Shown here one piece after another: positions 7,883-61,150 of a DNA stretch of 64,000 nucleotides. The notes under the pieces were generated by a model. It was given only the letters and a program-made list of their open reading frames with translations. It did no database searches and was not told the origin of the DNA. This stretch comes from Octopus vulgaris (Eukaryota), in contig OX597821.1 in the NCBI GenBank assembly GCA_951406725.2, positions 68,138,001-68,202,000 on the forward strand, written 5' to 3'. Within the stretch, counting starts at the first letter, position 1. Every line of letters starts with the position of its first letter. A program made the position numbers and the translations under genes.

Positions 7883-8126
7883 GGATAAACTGGGATTTTT
7901 AGAAAGAGAAATCGTCTGGCTAATTTGTACATTACACGTGCAATCTGTGAGTGGAACAGTAAAAATATACAAGACTTTTCTCAAGTTCCAAATAGGAATT
8001 TGTCTGCGTTAACTACATCTCAAAGATGGAGACTTGTATCTTCGTTGGAAATCGATTCCCATGTGAGTGGAAGATTTATAATTAAAAATTAGACGATACA
8101 TACATACATACATACATACATACATA

Positions 8127-11100
8127 AAACTTAGATAAAACTTAGATATGTTTCGACCAGAGATTGGTCTAGGCCATGTCTAACTTAATAGCACCACCTG
8201 ATAGGATTATTCGAATCCTGTTTAAGTCAAGTTCTGTTCAAGTAGTGAGTTCTTGTTGGGTGAGTTGTATCCAGTTTTGTTCAAGTAGTGAGTTCTTGTT
8301 GGGTGAGTTGTATCCAATTATGGGTGGCTTGTCTGGTATTCTTTGAAGGAATCTATCCAGACTGTTTGAAGTTGATGGGATCCTTTTCCTCTTTGATCTC
8401 CCTCGGGACAATGTTAAATAGGGCAGGGCCTGTTGAGGAAAAGAAATTATGTTGCAGTGTACATGTATGTTGTGATCTTGAATTTGGCAGGGGACGTATA
8501 GCCCGTGGTCCAAGTCTCGGATGAACCTTGAAGCTAATGTTTAGGTCGTTTGGGCAAAGTTGGCGGTATATTTTCCACATCGTACAAATGATGTACCGCT
8601 CACGGCGACGCTGGAGGGAGTAAAGTTTCAAGGCTTTAAGGCGATCCCAATAGTCGAGAGCAGCCATGCCTTCAATTTGTTTAGTGAGAGCCCTCTGGGG
8701 TGACTCAATTCTGGAGATGTTTTGTCTTGTGTGAGGAGACCACAGTGGGCAGCAGTATTCAAGGTGTGGCCGTACAAAGGATGAAAAAAGTGGTATGATG
8801 ACACCTTGTTCTCTGGACCGGAAAGTTCTTAAGATCCAGGAACTCATCCTACGAGCTGTATCGACCTTCTTGTTGATGTGTGCACTCCAACTGAGATCGT
8901 CATCAACAATTACACCCAGGTCTCTGATATTGTTAGAGGCTGTGAGCGGTTCCCCTGAAGGAAGAGAGTATGGTTGTTTTAGTGAGGAATTTCTTCCAAA
9001 ATGCATCAGCTCAAATTTTCCCTCATTCAGTTGCATTTTGTTTCTGTCTGCCCATTGACTCACAGCATATAGGTCAGACTGGAGTTGAGTTCGGTCTGCT
9101 TCTTCATTGACGATTTGCTGGAGCTTAGTGTCATCAGCGAATATTTTCACTTTGCAGTGATGTACGACACTGGAAAGGTCGTTTACATAAATTATGAAGA
9201 GTAGCGGACCCAAAACAGTTCCCTGGGGAACACCGCTGGTGACTTTTGCTGGGTTTGAGTGGACTCCATCAACTACAACATGTTGTGTTCTATTCGCTAG
9301 GAAATACTGAATCCAGTGTAGAACTTTTCCACGGATTCCAACATTTGCCAATTTTGAGAGTAGGATGTTATGGTCTACCCTGTCGAACGCTTTACTGAAG
9401 TCAAGGTATATGACGTCAGAGTTCGAACCTGTTCCCAAGGCTTTGAGTACATCTTCAATGTGGTGTAAGAGCTGTGTTAGACAGTCCCTGCCACAGCGAA
9501 AGCCATGCTGATTTGAATTTAGGAGTTTGTGGGTCTCCAGGAAGTCAGCTATCCTTGATCTTAACACTCTTTCAAACACTTTAATGATGTGGGAGGTGAG
9601 TGAGATTGGGCGATAGTTGACTGCGAGGGATCTGTTTCCCTGTTTGAAAACCGGGATGACCGACTGGGATAGAAACTTTTTCGGTATATAACCTGCGTCT
9701 AACGAGTTTCTCCAGAGGTTGGTCAGAGGGACTGCAAGTTGATATCTACATTCCTTCAGGAGACTGGCGGGAAATCTATCAGGGCCTACAGCAGAGTAAT
9801 GTTTGACCTCATTTATTGCTGCTACGATGTCGATGGCAGTGAAGGTTATGTCTGCGATTTTGTGTTGGGAGACAGCTTCGTTCGTTTCCCTCATATCAAT
9901 ATCAGTGGGAACACTGAAGACAGAGCAATATTGTTTCTGCAGTATTTCTGCCATTTCTTTAGCATCGTGTTGGGGAATGCCGTTTTCATCAATCAATGGC
10001 CCAATAGGTGAGACAGTGGTTCTATGCTTATTTGCATAAGAATAGAACACTTTTGGGTTCTGTTTGATGTTTTTGATTACCCATTGTTCCTCCACAGCTC
10101 TTTGATTTTCAATGGAGGTTTTCATGTTAGTCTGCAGATGAAGTTTTTCCAGCTCTAGTCTTTTCATTGTTGTTGAATGTGGGTGTTGCGTGTGGGAATA
10201 TTTTAATTGGTTGATTTTTTTGTTGAGTCTTTTGATGCGCCTGATGAGTGTTTTTTTCTTTTTAGGGAGCCGGTTTCTGTTTGTGTTAGTAGATTTCTTG
10301 GGGGCGTGTTTAGAGCATGTGTCGGTGACAATGGTTTCAAAGTGATGCCACGCGGTCTCAATATGAGGGGAATTGAGAGTAAAAGACCAGTCGATGGAAG
10401 ACAGATCCTTTCTGATTGTTCCCCAGTCCGCTTTGTGGAAATTTATGTTGTCAAATGGGTGCCATGGAGTGGGATTGGCTAGTTTGGTTTTTATACGTCG
10501 GGAATTAAGATTGCAGAGTACCATGTCGTGGTCTGAGAGGAGAGTTTTTTCGACTGAAATGCTGTGAACGTAGCTAGAGTGATTGGTCAGTACCAGATCC
10601 AAGATCGTTTTATTCTGTCTCGTTGGTTCAAGCACTAGCTGAGTCAGGAAATACTCATCCATCAGATTAAAGAGCAGTTCTGCTGCTGCCCTATCTGATG
10701 TAGAGCACTTGCCTAACTTCGGAGTATTTGTGGGCCAGTTCACATGAGGGAGGTTAAAATCACCCATCACTATTATGTTTCCGGAGTGGTACTTCCGAAG
10801 GAAGGACTTGACTTTGCTAAGGCACTCTTCAAAGTACTTTAGAGGTGCCTGGGGAGGCCTGTAAAGACCAACAATGGTTATGTCCTTGGCTTTGTTGTAT
10901 ACTGATACTGATTCACAGTAGCCATTGGAAATTGTGTCCTTGGCATCAAGTGAAAAGGAGTCATGGATAAAGATGGCTGTCCCTCCCTTATTTCGGTCTG
11001 TGCGATCCACACGAACAATGGTGAAATCTTTTATTTTCACCTCTGCGTCCATATGGGTGTTGTTCAGGTGAGTCTCGGTAAGGATAAAGAAAGGGAAGCA

Positions 11101-13009
11101 ATGTGCCATTTCGGCAAGCCAACTCTCTATATATGGGATCTTCCATTTTTGGGCAATAATTGATGGGTTGATGCCACGTACATTTAACAGGAATGTCGAG
11201 GTAAGGGAAGTTGGTAATGGGTGAGTGGTCCTTGTGATTTGCATAGATGGTTGGTGATGGCTCGCTGGATCTCCTGGCTTAGGTCGGCCTTCATATTTTC
11301 CAGGTATGTCAGTAAAAAAGTTACTTGTTTGGTTTGCCACTTGGTCAGAGGATACATATTTCAAGTTGGCGTTATTTGGTGTTTTTTCCTGGTTCTGTCT
11401 ACGTAGTTTGATTGTAGGAGGGGAAACGTGGTTGTATTTTGTTCTTGTTGTTGTCCTAGATTTCCTCTGTTCCTGTTCATATCTATTCTGTGATCGTTTT
11501 GTGCCCTTCAGATGGTGGTTGTTGCATTCTGGGTTCAGGCACATCCTTTGTGAGACAGAAGTTTGGCACAGTTTAGGATGGAATAAGGTGCATCCATTGC
11601 CTCTTATGCATCCGTATTTAGGGTCAGAACCATAGATTCTGTATTTAGGACAGTATTTGGGGTGGAGGTGGGGGCAATTTTTTCCTGTTATACCGTATGG
11701 ACAGGTGCCCATAGCAAGTCTACGACATAAGGTCGGGTGGGGAAAAGCACAGCGTCCATTTTTGTTTGTGCCGCTGGGGCCAAATCTACAAGTGCCTTTA
11801 GAATAGTAACGGCAGGGGGTTTTATTTGGTTGTAGTAGTGGTTTTTCTATTTTGGCAGTAGTAGTAGTGGTGGTGGTGGTGGTGGTGGTGTTAGAAGCAG
11901 CTTGTTGATTTTGTGATGGTGGGTTCTGGCTTGCCAGTATGTGGTCAAATCTGCAGCTGCCTTGAGAGTAGTAGTGGCAGATAGTTTTACGCGGATGTAG
12001 TACTGATTTTCCTATTGTGGCAGTAGTGGGGAGTTTTTGCAGCATTGGAACTTGACTAGTGGTAGTATTAGAGTGTTGTTGTTGTTGTTTTTGTTGCTGT
12101 AGCGAAGGTGAGACTTGACTTGGTTCATCAGGTGCTGTTGTCAATGGAAGTAGGTCAGTTGATTGTTGCTGTTGAAGTGACCACTGACCTGTTGGAATTT
12201 GGTCATTTGTTGTACTGGATTCGTTGGCAAGAATGGCTTTTAGTGTAGCCATGTGCGCGTGAAAAATAGGGAATATCCTAACAATTTCTTTTAATTTATT
12301 TTCTATCTGTTTTACAGATCTGTGAAAGGATTTTTTCGTTAAATCCTCAGTTATTTTGCTATAAACATTAGCTTCGTTGTGATGGATGAACCAAGCATTA
12401 ATCATTGCAGTAATTTCATTTTCAACCCAGCGGCGTTTTTGAAAATTATTGGCCATATTCAGTGGGGTAGTGTTGTGTAATATATATATGTATGTATGTG
12501 TATGTATGTGTACACCAGTTATTGATGGCTTGATGTAAAATAGTGAACACACTGTTGAAAAGATTGTATCGATATACTCGGTAAATAGTGAATACACCGT
12601 TGGAAAGTTTGTGTCGATATACTCGGAAATTCGTGGCTTGTGTGTGTGAGAGTTCAGTGTAATTAGTACAATCTAATTAGTACAATCGGGATGAGCGGTG
12701 TGTTTGATACAGACCAAGAAAAAAGAATTGTACTCACGGGACTAGTTTTAGAACTAGTCTTGGGTTTAGTATTTAGTTTTGGGTTGTTCCTCTTTCTTCA
12801 GGTTGTATAAAGATTTGTATAAATTTATCCTCCGATGGTAGTAAAAGAGTAGTATAGTAGGATTGTAGAGTTCAAAAGTCTTGAGATTAAAGACAAGGAG
12901 AGATTATGTTAGCTTGAGTTGAGTTGAGTTAAATTGAGTTGAAAAATGCTTCTTTGGTTAGTTACTGACGGGAGCTATAAAAAGTACGTCTTGTCACGAC
13001 GACTGCCTG
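8127..13009 (-). mobile_element. Near full-length CR1-group non-LTR retrotransposon inserted in (CATA)n
   Basis: Both flanks are (CATA)n (8096-8126, 13010-13074). The 3' tail is an 11-bp tandem (CTAAGTTTTAT)2 preceded by a stem-loop. About 550 bp of 5' UTR; APE-RT ORF inside. Confidence 0.95.
8353..12456 (-). CDS. Fused ORF1-ORF2 polyprotein: Myb/SANT-like domain, 4 CCCH zinc fingers, AP endonuclease, reverse transcriptase
   Basis: APE motifs LNVRG, LTETHL, GLYRPP, MGDFN, LDLVLTN, SDH. RT motifs YRPISLTS, QHGFR, YLDFSKAFD, GVPQGTVLGP, FADD. CR1-type C-terminus RPHLEYC and SLQRRR. Likely start is ATG 12456 (MANNF). Confidence 0.93.
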   Translation of the reverse strand: MANNFQKRRWVENEITAMINAWFIHHNEANVYSKITEDLTKKSFHRSVKQIENKLKEIVRIFPIFHAHMATLKAILANESSTTNDQIPTGQWSLQQQQSTDLLPLTTAPDEPSQVSPSLQQQKQQQQHSNTTTSQVPMLQKLPTTATIGKSVLHPRKTICHYYSQGSCRFDHILASQNPPSQNQQAASNTTTTTTTTTTTAKIEKPLLQPNKTPCRYYSKGTCRFGPSGTNKNGRCAFPHPTLCRRLAMGTCPYGITGKNCPHLHPKYCPKYRIYGSDPKYGCIRGNGCTLFHPKLCQTSVSQRMCLNPECNNHHLKGTKRSQNRYEQEQRKSRTTTRTKYNHVSPPTIKLRRQNQEKTPNNANLKYVSSDQVANQTSNFFTDIPGKYEGRPKPGDPASHHQPSMQITRTTHPLPTSLTSTFLLNVRGINPSIIAQKWKIPYIESWLAEMAHCFPFFILTETHLNNTHMDAEVKIKDFTIVRVDRTDRNKGGTAIFIHDSFSLDAKDTISNGYCESVSVYNKAKDITIVGLYRPPQAPLKYFEECLSKVKSFLRKYHSGNIIVMGDFNLPHVNWPTNTPKLGKCSTSDRAAAELLFNLMDEYFLTQLVLEPTRQNKTILDLVLTNHSSYVHSISVEKTLLSDHDMVLCNLNSRRIKTKLANPTPWHPFDNINFHKADWGTIRKDLSSIDWSFTLNSPHIETAWHHFETIVTDTCSKHAPKKSTNTNRNRLPKKKKTLIRRIKRLNKKINQLKYSHTQHPHSTTMKRLELEKLHLQTNMKTSIENQRAVEEQWVIKNIKQNPKVFYSYANKHRTTVSPIGPLIDENGIPQHDAKEMAEILQKQYCSVFSVPTDIDMRETNEAVSQHKIADITFTAIDIVAAINEVKHYSAVGPDRFPASLLKECRYQLAVPLTNLWRNSLDAGYIPKKFLSQSVIPVFKQGNRSLAVNYRPISLTSHIIKVFERVLRSRIADFLETHKLLNSNQHGFRCGRDCLTQLLHHIEDVLKALGTGSNSDVIYLDFSKAFDRVDHNILLSKLANVGIRGKVLHWIQYFLANRTQHVVVDGVHSNPAKVTSGVPQGTVLGPLLFIIYVNDLSSVVHHCKVKIFADDTKLQQIVNEEADRTQLQSDLYAVSQWADRNKMQLNEGKFELMHFGRNSSLKQPYSLPSGEPLTASNNIRDLGVIVDDDLSWSAHINKKVDTARRMSSWILRTFRSREQGVIIPLFSSFVRPHLEYCCPLWSPHTRQNISRIESPQRALTKQIEGMAALDYWDRLKALKLYSLQRRRERYIICTMWKIYRQLCPNDLNISFKVHPRLGPRAIRPLPNSRSQHTCTLQHNFFSSTGPALFNIVPREIKEEKDPINFKQSG

Positions 13010-13044
13010 ACATACATACATACATACATACATACATACATACA

Positions 13045-13076
<32 letters not shown>

Positions 13077-15234: not shown

Positions 15235-15460
15235 TTACTCTTTTACTGGTTTCAGTCATTTGACTGCGGCCATTCTGGGGCACCGCCCTGAAGAGTTTTG
15301 GTCGAACAAATCGACCTCAGGGCTTTTTTAAAGCCTAGCACTTATTCTATCACTCACTTTTGCCGCACCGCCTGGTTTCAAGGACGTAAACCTACCAACG
15401 CCGGTTGTTAAGCGGTGATGAGAAGAAAAACACAGACACAAAGACACACAGAGTCTCACT
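15235..15460 (-). mobile_element. 3' part of family B SINE
   Basis: Reverse complement of ...GGCCGCAGTCAAATGACTGAAAC..GTAAAAGAGTAAAAG, as seen at 18000-18063. Confidence 0.75.
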
Positions 15461-17693: not shown

Positions 17694-18063
17694 TTCCGGG
17701 TTCAGTCCCACTGCGTGGCATCTTGGGCAAGTGTCTTCTGCTGTAGCCCCGGGCCGACCAATGCCTTGTGAGTGGATTTGGTAGACGGAAACTGAAAGAA
17801 GCCCGTCGTATATATGTATATATATATATGTGTGTGTGTTTGTGTGTCTGTTTGTCCCCCTAGCATTGCTTGACAACCGATGCTGGTGCGTTTATGTCCC
17901 CGTTACTTAGCGGTTCGGCAAAAAGAGACCGATAGAATAAGTACTGGGCTTACAAAAAGAATAAGTCCCGGGGTCGAGTTGCTCGATTAAAGGCGGTGCT
18001 CCAGCATGGCCGCAGTCAAATGACTGAAACAAGTAAAAGAGTAAAAGAGTAAAAGAGTAAAGA
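17692..18063 (+). mobile_element. Family B SINE (tRNA/CORE-like), 5' truncated
   Basis: GGTTCAGTCCC B-box remnant, CORE-like CTTGGGCAAGTGTCTT, (GTAAAAGA)n tail; other copies at 27910-28075 (-) and 26805-26900. Confidence 0.8.
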
Positions 18064-35652: not shown

Positions 35653-36128
35653 ATATCTTTTATCGACCTGATTCAGATTCATGTATACAAAGCAATCAAG
35701 GTTTCAGAAATTATAATTAATAAGGCGGTGCTCTAGCATGGCCGCAGTAAAATGACTGAAACAAATAAAAGAATAAAAGAATACAAGAATAAGTCCTTGA
35801 TTATTTCAAGGTCGGATAAATTATAATTTATAAGTCTTTAACTGTTTCGTATTGATGAGACTCAAACGAGTCAACAAAGATATATAAGAAATTTATGAAC
35901 TCAATAGTTGAGGGGGAAAAGAAATTAAATAAATGCATAAAGCCGATATGATAAATTCGATTTCATGAAACTAAAATTTACGTCATTATCGAAAAAAGAA
36001 AAGCAAAGAATTTTGCAAGACGTTTCTCCACGTTGTAATGATAAACAACGACCGACTAAATAAGAGATTGCAAAGATATACACATATATATGTACATGAG
36101 AGTTTCGGCACCCCCACACATATACATT

Positions 36129-59297: not shown

Positions 59298-61150
59298 GTA
59301 TTATCATAGTATAGATTACTGTATCTTGTGGTAATACAAACTAAATTCAAAACCATGATTATTTTTAATCCCTGCTTAATCTCCCATTGGTTGTATGCGC
59401 ATATTAGACGCAAAGAAGACTTTTTTCTTGTTTTTTTTTTTGTTTTTTGAAAAATTGCTTCCAGTAGCTATCTCCAGTATTTTGTTGAGTGCTGTGTTTT
59501 TTGTGGCGCGTTATTAAAGCCCTAAGATGCCGCCCAAACGCCCTACACCTTCTAAGACTTCTGGCAGTGAACTTAAGCACCAGAAAGAGGTTATGACGCT
59601 CCATGAGCAGGCGCAACTGCTGGATGTGTTCCGGGAAGGTAAAAGTTATGCTGCAGTCGGTCGCTGTTATGTTGTCAACGAAAGCACCATACGCTACATA
59701 AAGAAGAATGAGGTGGAGATCAGAACTACCGTAGCAGTAAGTTTCTGTGAATGTGCCAAAAAGATAACGATAGTGAGAAATAAGCACATTGTCAGGATGG
59801 AATCTGCCTTGAAATTGATGATCAGTGACTGCGAGAAGAAAAACATCCCCTTGGGCGGTAACATCATCTGCGAGAAAGCGCAGAAATTATGCCAGCAGAT
59901 CGACAGAGGAGGCGGAGCAGGGGGCACCGAAGAACTGCAACCTAGATCATCGACAGCACCGGGGCCCGAAGATTTTCAAACCAGTAAGGGATGGTTTGAT
60001 TGTTTCTAGAATTGATTTAAAATAAAGTGTGTTTCTCTACATGGAGAAACAGCATCAGCCGACAAAAAAGCTGCCGAGAAGTACCTCAAGACCTTCAGTT
60101 AGATCACCAAGGACAAGGGATACAAGCCGGAACAGGCTTTCAGTATCGACGAGACTGGCTTGTTCTAGAAGAAGATGCCTTCCAGAGCGTACATCATGAA
60201 GGACGAAGCTAGATCCCCAACATTTAAGGCACAGATGTACAGAATGATACTAATTATATGTGAAAATTCTGTCGGCTTCATGATGAAACCAGGACTTATC
60301 TACAAGTCCGCGAACCTGGGGGCCTTCAAACCTAAGAATAAAAATTTGCTGCTTGTCCACCTGATGCACAACACCAAGGCCTGGATTACCAAAAGTCTAA
60401 CTTTGAATTGGTCCCAACAGTGCTTCAGCCCTCAAGCCAAGGAATACCTCCCAAATGTTTGCATGGAATTTAAGATGTTGATAATTATGGATAACGCTGG
60501 TGGTCACTTTTTGGATTTGAATCACGAGGGAGTTCAAGTCGAGTTCCTCCCTGCCAACACCACTCGCCTCATCCAGCTTATGGATCAAGGCGTGATAGAT
60601 ACTTTCAAAGCACTTTACACTCGAAACTCTCTCCAACACCTTGTGGACACAATGGAATCGGACGAGAATTTCAAGTTAAAGGAGTACTGGCGTAACTTCA
60701 CGATTGCAACGTGCCTGTCAGTCATCCACGCTGCTCCTAAAGACATGAAAAAAGAAACCCCCCATCTCTTGCTGAAAGAAGATGTGCCCATATATGTCCA
60801 GGACTACGAGCGTTTCTCACCTGAAGATATTCAGCACAAGGCTGTCGACAATGTGGTGAAACTGGTGAAACATATGAAGAATGTGGTGAAACACCTGACG
60901 AAGAGGCGTCACCTGAAGAGGTTTAAGTTTTCTTTGCTGTGCAGTCATTACGTTCATTATTCTCATCATCATTGTCTTAAATCAATATCATTCAATATTG
61001 GTGAATAACAGTACATTTTGCTTTAATTTTCATTAGATTATCATTAAATACTATATATATGATATTTTACGTTATATTTTGACATTTATAGGCATTTTAA
61101 CGAACCACGTCCAATATTCGCGGTTTTTCACTAATACCGGGGGACTACTG
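58790..61150 (+). mobile_element. Tigger/pogo DNA transposon, near full length
   Basis: Ends CAGTGTACCCCCG and CGGGGGACTACTG; internal transposase pseudogene. Confidence 0.88.
59527..60900 (+). pseudogene. TIGD1/Tigger-like transposase pseudogene
   Basis: HTH-psq (VNESTIRYIKK), FQTSKGWF, SLHGETASAD, DETGLF, MDNAGGH, FLPANTT.LIQLMDQGVI; in-frame stops near 60007 and 60166. Confidence 0.9.

Follow-up and report, generated by a model that had tools for sequence, protein, structure and literature searches.

The stretch of DNA analyzed here, referred to as the window, comprises 64,000 nucleotides (nt) of the Octopus vulgaris genome (GCA_951406725.2, contig OX597821.1, forward-strand positions 68,138,001 to 68,202,000) and contains a nearly full-length, CR1-like long interspersed nuclear element (LINE) that we designate family A. 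The first open reading frame (ORF1) of this family almost certainly joins a Myb/SANT-like domain to an array of CCCH zinc fingers on a LINE with two ORFs. The new part of ORF1 is the Myb domain, which stands where related ORF1 proteins have a helical-plus-PHD head. By a modest preference, we favor a joint reading in which this Myb-for-PHD ORF1 would be fused to ORF2 by frameshifting and would act as a loose tether to AT-rich DNA or chromatin. ORF1 starts at a Met codon at position 12456 on the minus strand and is laid out as follows:

12223..12438, minus strand: Myb/SANT-like (trihelix-type) domain, ORF1 residues ~7 to 78 (PF13837, 28.5 bits; AlphaFold; isoelectric point, or pI, of 9.9)
11863..12222, minus strand: linker rich in Q, T, and S, including a partial duplicate of the first-finger region at 11940 to 12027
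11953 to 11979, minus strand: truncated finger within the partial duplicate
11737..11814, minus strand: CCCH finger 1, C-x7-C-x12-C-x3-H (weak zf-CCCH match)
11512..11727, minus strand: triple CCCH module, fingers 2 to 4, common to a large group of PHD-CCCH LINE ORF1s
11662 to 11727, minus strand: finger 2, C7/8/3
11578 to 11652, minus strand: finger 3, C13/5/3
11512 to 11568, minus strand: finger 4, C8/4/3

Both motifs that the preliminary description of this DNA had read as a Myb/SANT pattern are present in the minus-strand frame, with W..EE..LI..W running from window position 12429 and the helix-3 motif at 12283 to 12321. The isolated 79-residue N terminus matches PF13837 with 28.5 bits (E value of 2e-6; cutoff of 27), and a three-helix fold is predicted. 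The score falls under the cutoff in longer contexts (25.7 bits within 330 residues and 21.6 bits within the full-length sequence). Older copies of family A reach 31 to 43 bits; here and below, all sets of copies are best-scoring matches and not random samples. The profile also matches, at an E value of ≤0.1, all 15 rows of a Myb alignment made up of 11 LINE and 4 host-like Myb sequences, from which L147 was excluded on account of a stop codon. From this alignment, AlphaFold produced a model with a pLDDT of 89 and helices at residues 12 to 25, 31 to 41, and 48 to 78, whose nearest solved folds are the GT-1 trihelix, DNAJC2 SANT, RAD Myb, and Zeste domains (TM scores of 0.56 to 0.62). VIA gave Z scores of 7.8 to 8.2 for the GT-1, DNAJC2 SANT, and RAD matches; its top match is a SANT domain, and several of the others are remodeller subunits.

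Some of the structural evidence weighs against this assignment. Prediction from the single sequence gave a pLDDT of 63 and no Myb match by Foldseek, and the confident fold came from an alignment that includes the four host Myb rows, which may have pulled the model. Foldseek E values are 0.3 or worse, a VIA Z score of 8.2 is middling for helical domains, and the third helix lacks the Trp that three of the four host-like rows have there. Nevertheless, the predicted fold of the ORF1 N-terminal domain is of the trihelix/Myb class. Relative to the PF13837 domains of GT-1 and Zeste, the LINE domain is alike in profile and predicted fold and differs in its shorter first loop and its Trp-less helix 3. 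Harbinger ORF1 and MSANTD proteins are also among the PF13837 Myb/SANT-like domains.

Among the 11 LINE rows, the pI of the domain ranges from 7.0 to 9.7 and exceeds 9 in 7. Between young and old copies of family A, the Myb domain has a dN of 0.08 to 0.10 and a dS of 0.48 to 0.65, compared with a dS of 0.13 to 0.18 in ORF2's domains for the apurinic-type endonuclease (APE) and for the reverse transcriptase (RT) (for APE, the second young/old comparison has a broken frame and was excluded). The low dN relative to dS indicates purifying selection on the Myb domain. Furthermore, its higher dS suggests that the 5' part of the element is more diverged than the rest, as an exchange of 5' ends would give.

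No host donor of the Myb domain was found, the four aligned host-like rows being 10 to 22% identical. A PDB sequence search returned nothing below an E value of 0.19, and a word-index search of residues 1 to 330 against proteins of 752 to 2,394 residues gave no match among 2,951 candidates. The top ESM Atlas matches, which are leads only, were zf-CCCH clusters (0.88) and one PF13837 cluster (0.90). The Myb domain of a sister family is 87 to 92% identical to proteins named Octopus vulgaris, and one O. bimaculoides protein matches at 60%. As a separate observation, five strong PF13837 matches (L150 to L154) have no LINE ORF2 nearby and are probably host Myb/SANT genes or Harbinger remnants. The predicted O. 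bimaculoides host protein LOC106870161 has a Myb domain like that of another octopus LINE family (family C, below) at its start and DUF4600 at its end; it may be a gene-model artifact or else the 5' end of a LINE that was exonized or domesticated.

The four CCCH spacings reported in the preliminary description are exact in the minus-strand frame, and none of 20,000 shuffles of residues 1 to 330 reached four such patterns (maximum of two). Pfam zf-CCCH matches are weak (17 to 20 bits; cutoff of 20.5), and only Myb_DNA-bind_4 and zf-CCCH families match the 424-residue ORF1 at an E value of ≤0.01. Pfam detected no RRM, CCHC, Tnp22, PHD, or esterase domain in this sequence; a divergent RRM is conceivable, though the remainder is of low complexity. 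The truncated finger noted behind the linker does exist, but it belongs to the partial duplicate of the first-finger region (88 bp, 77% identical to 11775 to 11862), which occurs in 29/39 copies of the DNA-similarity set and 0/18 copies of the older subfamily.

Relatives of the finger array form 1,508 clusters (50% level) at an E value of ≤0.001, and among the best 150 matched stretches none begins before residue 148. A Myb domain was found by Pfam in none of 75 scanned CCCH relatives and a PHD-type domain in 11; of 152 relatives, 83 show a PHD-like pattern. A helical-plus-PHD profile matches 77 of the 84 relatives that have a long N terminus, a count that is partly circular, the profile having been built from 57 of the 84. 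Seven metagenomic loci (L200 to L206) carry genes of the PHD-CCCH type, and in six an overlapping APE-containing ORF2 follows; the seventh contig ends in the fingers. Fingers common to 1,508 clusters, with an APE ORF2 downstream at 6/7 loci, indicate that a large group of LINE ORF1s is normally built around the triple CCCH module. Thus, in the earlier idea of a captured module with RNA-binding fingers, the novelty lies in the Myb domain replacing PHD, whereas the CCCH array is standard for the group. Family A shares with the PHD-plus-triple-CCCH ORF1s the finger module, a C-terminal Phe-Leu helix, and a -1 overlap with ORF2; they differ in having a helical domain and PHD with three fingers, versus four, two, or one finger with Myb. 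No homology was detected between the Myb domain and the helical N-terminal domain of the PHD-type ORF1s (hhalign probability of 4%).

CR1/L2 ORF1 proteins have been classified into types I to V with RRM, CCHC, Tnp22, PHD, and esterase modules, and whole-ORF1 transfer between lineages has been proposed (Metcalfe and Casane 2014, PMC4120745). The nearest of these are CR1 subgroup 2 (type V, in which only PHD is identified) and type III, insofar as the available part of that source describes them, and the octopus element resembles them in its APE-RT ORF2, its modular, exchangeable ORF1, and its chromatin-type N-terminal module. The architecture is not among the CR1 ORF1 types given there, as had been expected: Myb, SANT, trihelix, MADF, and CCCH are absent from the accessible text of PMC4120745, and none is in its Table 1. 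The accessible portions of PMC13343379, PMC5203782, PMC11203168, PMC12988792, and PMC9115989 likewise do not mention a Myb-CCCH architecture. The octopus LINE activity reported in the part of PMC9115989 available to us concerns an RTE element, which is distinct from the Myb-headed families. Searches of the accessible literature listed no title or abstract opening that describes a Myb or CCCH ORF1 or a slippery junction in CR1-type LINEs, although Repbase, Dfam, subscription papers, or supplements may describe such families.

ORF1 and ORF2 occupy two frames in family A, and the single long frame of the window is the peculiarity of one copy. The remaining features of the element and its flanks are as follows:

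8125..13009, minus strand: CR1-like LINE copy of family A, near full length, ~4.9 kb, with ends common to other genomic copies
12457..13009, minus strand: 5' untranslated region (UTR) with short internal repeats; many copies begin at 13009 or only a few bases away
11313..11322, minus strand: ORF1/ORF2 junction, with an in-frame T TTT TTA just past the -1-frame stop in the family
11183..11318, minus strand: ORF1/ORF2 overlap of 44 ORF1 codons, encoding Phe-Leu and an amphipathic helix (ORF1 end approximate)
10519..11196, minus strand: APE domain of ORF2 (PF14529, E value of 1.6e-16; PF03372), with its start motif at 11196
8908..9621, minus strand: RT domain of ORF2 (PF00078, E value of 4.3e-31)
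8353..8365, minus strand: second copy-specific 2-nt loss, near 8363, with the frame stopping at 8353
8125..8146, minus strand: 3' tail of two 11-bp repeats, without poly(A)
13010..13074: (CATA)n at the 5' side, with a second (CATA)n run at 8096 to 8126; atypical for family A

The Pfam matches bear out the preliminary description's reading of an APE-type LINE. APE precedes RT in ORF2 and the 3' end consists of short tandem repeats, as in a CR1-group LINE of the Jockey superfamily; we take the element to be CR1-like from its RT motifs and the type of its tail. In unbroken copies of family A, an ORF1 of ~424 residues overlaps an APE-RT ORF2 of ~1,002 residues (counted from the first Met), with ORF1 separate and upstream, and many copies are 5' truncated. 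Both ORFs are whole in 3 of 39 copies. The joined frame of 1,367 residues occurs in the window copy and in 0/39 other fetched copies, in which the longest frame has 1,028. Of 38 aligned copies, 35 have 2 nt at ~11318 to 11320 that the window lacks; this loss at the junction fuses ORF1 and ORF2 into one frame. In two of four public runs, contigs carry the additional 2 nt behind 11318. Near 8363, the 2 additional bases are present in 35 of 36 aligned copies, and the window frame ends ~40 residues sooner. An element with a single ORF, which we considered, is ruled out by the two-ORF copies together with the 2 nt that 35/38 copies have at the junction. The module described as the N terminus of the LINE therefore consists of real domains but belongs to the separate ORF1 of the family. 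DNA searches gave 272 first-look candidates with the 5' part of the element and 1,846 with its 3' end, neither of which is a copy number. Within the CR1 group, a poly(A) tail is described as unique to Zenon in the accessible part of PMC13343379.

At the junction, a T TTT TTA heptamer lies in phase with the ORF1 codons for Phe-Leu, 1 to 28 nt past the last stop of the -1 frame in which ORF2 is read. Thus, an in-phase heptamer of the form X XXY YYZ is followed by a downstream ORF that is open in the -1 frame. In a survey of 41 copies, T TTT TTA was found in 5/5 young and 3/5 old copies of family A, 5/5 of family B, 5/5 of family E, and 4/5 of family D, with T TTT TTG in 8/8 copies of family C and G TTT TTG in 1/2 of family F. 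The copies without it (two old A, one D, and one F) all have changed or broken frames. Six metagenomic loci, representing four lineages, reach the junction: four have T TTT TTA and the other two (L201 and L202) have G GAT TTT, so that all four outside lineages carry a heptamer there. In the part of PMC5009743 available to us, U_UUU_UUA is listed as the shift site of HIV and G_GAU_UUU as that of pea enation mosaic virus.

The amino acids encoded by the heptamer are well conserved (Phe in 118 and Leu in 112 of 130 aligned ORF1 C termini, namely the query and 129 of the 152 relatives). Among 60 Phe-Leu dipeptides in frames of ≥250 residues from 10 elements, T TTT TTR encodes 8, all of which are junctions, and none of the 52 elsewhere; codon usage predicts 0.016 to 0.078 heptamers per lineage (L201 was excluded from the codon-usage and open-frame figures). 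Family E (whose first Met lies 200 codons past the site), L200, and L201 lack an AUG ahead of the first endonuclease motif, and in L205 and L206 the first Met falls inside that motif. The -1 frame is open across overlaps of 91 codons in L200 and 143 codons in L204, with chance probabilities of 0.028 and 0.015. An in-phase heptamer across lineages, its absence from the 52 other Phe-Leu pairs, and three lineages without an AUG make a programmed -1 frameshift that yields an ORF1-ORF2 fusion the likely explanation of these sequences. The window copy, having lost 2 nt at the slip site, would then have a frame that approximates the predicted transframe protein.

Several results weigh against frameshifting. 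In the shorter overlaps, the chance of an open frame is unremarkable (0.18 to 0.54). In families A, B, C, and D and in L204, the endonuclease is preceded by an AUG (25, 30, 22, 2, and 104 codons past the site, respectively), and therefore family A itself needs no frameshift. No conserved 3' stimulator was detected among 12 junctions: in local folding of 70-nt windows, with pseudoknots outside the model, only family E and L206 had a z of < -2, and most values were near 0 or positive. Among ~305 windows, pairing with the 3' end of the element ranked only 4th to 38th in the 6 copies for which a score was obtained (L205 and one family C copy were unscored for the end).

The AUGs and the lack of a conserved stimulator, locally or with the 3' end, would fit an ORF2 that is translated separately, by reinitiation or non-AUG initiation, with Myb-CCCH made only as a free ORF1 protein and Phe-Leu kept for the C-terminal helix. 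Precedents include AUG-independent initiation in L1 (PMC5009743) and UAAUG coupling in SART1 (PMC3894237), both as given in the available portions of these sources. The accessible text of PMC5009743, PMC3894237, and PMC1965478 describes LINE ORF2 translation via reinitiation, stop-start coupling, an internal ribosome entry site (IRES), or 2A, and a slippery junction is absent from it. However, protein constraint fails to explain the codon choice (8/8 junctions versus 0/52 other Phe-Leu pairs), G GAT TTT in L201/L202 is left unexplained, and the ORF2 frame opens 23 to 143 codons before the ORF1 stop. We therefore regard separate translation as unlikely.

The T run itself is prone to insertions and deletions, which also weighs against frameshifting because it fits polymerase slippage as well. 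Run length differs in 5/10 family E copies, of which 2 of the 5 variants had been picked for long frames. If the in-frame product arose because a polymerase slipped on the T6 run while transcribing or reverse transcribing, length variants would be expected, and all five of families A to E have them; joined copies such as L236, L238, and L246 also join at the T-run site. Yet the heptamer is in ORF1 phase in every lineage, G GAT TTT in L201/L202 has only four T residues, and homopolymer variants may be assembly errors, all of which makes this explanation very improbable. A programmed frameshift at the heptamer would resemble HIV-1 gag-pol, in which U_UUU_UUA is in phase and a pol-type ORF lies in the -1 frame, according to the portion of PMC5009743 available; the LINE junction differs in that no conserved 3' stem-loop or pseudoknot was detected. 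The same portion reports frameshifting in the gag of HeT-A, a non-LTR element, and names no ORF1/ORF2 frameshift for a CR1-type LINE.

The domain recurs in other genomic copies, with domain searches and fetched copies revealing at least six LINE families (A to F) with a Myb head in this genome. Family A has four fingers, families B and E have two copies of the last finger, and families C, D, and F have one finger; families B, E, and C include copies in which both ORFs are unbroken. ORF2 identity to family A is 62 to 65% in B and E and 37 to 39% in C and D. In a 13-row ORF2 tree, from which family F was excluded (no unbroken piece was recovered), A, B, and E join the PHD-type L200 and L201, and C and D join L205, L204, and L206 (support of 100/100). 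Forcing the Myb families together is rejected (p-AU of 1e-5), and the split between A/B/E and C/D persists in all three leave-out trees. In the Myb domain, the 11 LINE rows fall on one side of a branch from the 4 host-like rows, with modest support (80/84). The presence of the same Myb domain in two ORF2 lineages points to exchange of a 5' module, and the simplest reading of the trees would be a single capture of Myb followed by transfer between lineages. The unrooted ORF2 tree, its long branches, and the N termini of L204 and L206, which lie outside the data, weigh against that reading.

Other repeats touch on these families. A core of ~35 nt in the 3' UTR (window ~8150 to 8200, minus strand; 3' ends of L231 and L242) is nearly identical in A, B, and E; it is kept while their ORF2 proteins differ by 35 to 38% and is likely an RT recognition element. 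A short dispersed repeat is present in three copies in the window (15249 to 15275, minus strand; 18004 to 18030, plus strand; 35736 to 35762, plus strand). Its 3' part resembles the 3' ends of families C and D, and it is possibly a short interspersed nuclear element that borrows their machinery. A composite repeat of several kilobases, in which an old family A copy is combined with RTE-like inserts, occurs on many contigs, small ones included (L180, L181, L183 to L187, L278 to L289, L299, and L300), and we read it as segmental or subtelomeric amplification.

Under the joint reading, the majority of ribosomes would terminate at the ORF1 stop, giving a Myb-linker-CCCH-helix protein that would coat the RNA; judging from their class, the fingers likely bind the RNA of the element. 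At the heptamer, a smaller share of ribosomes would shift back by one base and produce a Myb-CCCH-APE-RT chain. Through its Myb head, this fusion could keep the complex in place on chromatin or AT-rich DNA, a part that PHD may play in relatives; the head would be a loose tether, not a site-specific guide. For the predicted role of the Myb domain as a DNA or chromatin tether, we see the arguments as evenly balanced.

The (CATA)n runs on both sides of the window copy had suggested a module that targets this repeat, in the manner of R2-type elements. These are non-LTR elements that insert at a specific site and carry zinc fingers and a Myb domain at the N terminus. Like them, family A has zinc fingers and a domain of the Myb class before the RT; it differs in its APE in place of a restriction-like endonuclease, its CCCH fingers, its two ORFs, and its dispersed insertions, and the proposed likeness to their Myb domains found no support. 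Among other copies, (CATA)n was found at 0/39 5' flanks and 1/35 3' flanks. It is thus peculiar to the window copy, and (CATA)n targeting is rejected. The flanks of family A copies are varied, and insertion is dispersed rather than at one fixed target.

A weaker preference is nonetheless visible. Runs of (TA)4 or more lie within 24 nt of 26/52 family A 5' junctions compared with 7/37 in two RTE-like families (Fisher P = 0.004) and with 5 to 7% at random positions. The 3' flanks are mostly (TA)n in families B (7/10) and E (9/10). These figures would favor sequence-specific targeting of some microsatellite by the Myb domain; however, (TA)n is missing from half of the 5' flanks, repeats on the 3' side can expand out of the tail, and RTE-like families without Myb, whose boundaries are noisy, also adjoin simple repeats (15/37, compared with 30/52 for any simple repeat in family A; P = 0.13), which counts against a part for Myb in the bias. 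Element boundaries in B, E, C, and D are unreliable or partly so, and target-site duplications could not be resolved inside microsatellite flanks. We consider targeting of (CATA)n or another microsatellite by the Myb domain quite improbable. Insertion shows a loose (TA)n bias, which the endonuclease alone could cause, and nothing ties it to the Myb domain. In one case (L247 and L133, G000:C1:216564700-216570000), the 3' tail of an RTE-like element is immediately followed by the start of a family A copy; LINEs nested in the microsatellite tail of another LINE may be common in this genome.

The Myb/SANT domain may also have no part in steering integration. SANT domains can bind histone tails. 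The domain occupies the PHD position of relatives, its top VIA match is a SANT domain with several remodeller subunits among the others, and insertion is not site specific, all of which would suit a histone-tail reader or host-protein binder that replaced PHD, or a regulator acting on the 5' promoter of the element. Against this, most of the LINE rows are basic, and the Pfam family and the top Foldseek matches (GT-1, and Zeste on DNA) are DNA binding. We regard a nonsteering role as possible but the less probable course; it is compatible with the frameshift. On a wider scale, a broad group of invertebrate LINEs might make the endonuclease-RT as a Gag-Pol-like fusion through HIV-type -1 frameshifting, which would wire any ORF1 head to the integration enzyme. 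In octopuses, one lineage would have exchanged its PHD finger for the Myb domain, and this 5' cassette, having moved to a second, distant ORF2 lineage, would now draw at least six families to (TA)n DNA as a swappable targeting head on an APE-type LINE, an extension that we hold to be doubtful.

Two items complete the survey. Frameshifting is also attributed to another non-LTR element, TRE5-A of Dictyostelium. The term "frameshift" is absent from the available text of PMC3159450. Elsewhere in the window, a broken pogo/Tigger-like DNA transposon lies at 59518 to 61008 on the plus strand, with CENP-B_N, HTH_Tnp_Tc5, and DDE_1 matches in two frames.

Overall, the ORF1 type and the frameshift merit testing; (CATA)n targeting does not. 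The translation of LINE ORF2 is called an open question in the accessible part of PMC3894237, and the same in-phase heptamer across lineages whose ORF2 proteins share only 30 to 45% identity, and of which three lack an upstream AUG, offers a sharp and cheap test. The Myb-CCCH ORF1 adds an ORF1 type that the searches of the accessible literature did not turn up, carried by families with many young two-ORF copies in the octopus genome. If the fusion is real, shuffling of ORF1 domains would alter the very protein that integrates the element, and the replacement of PHD by Myb would be a natural experiment on target choice.

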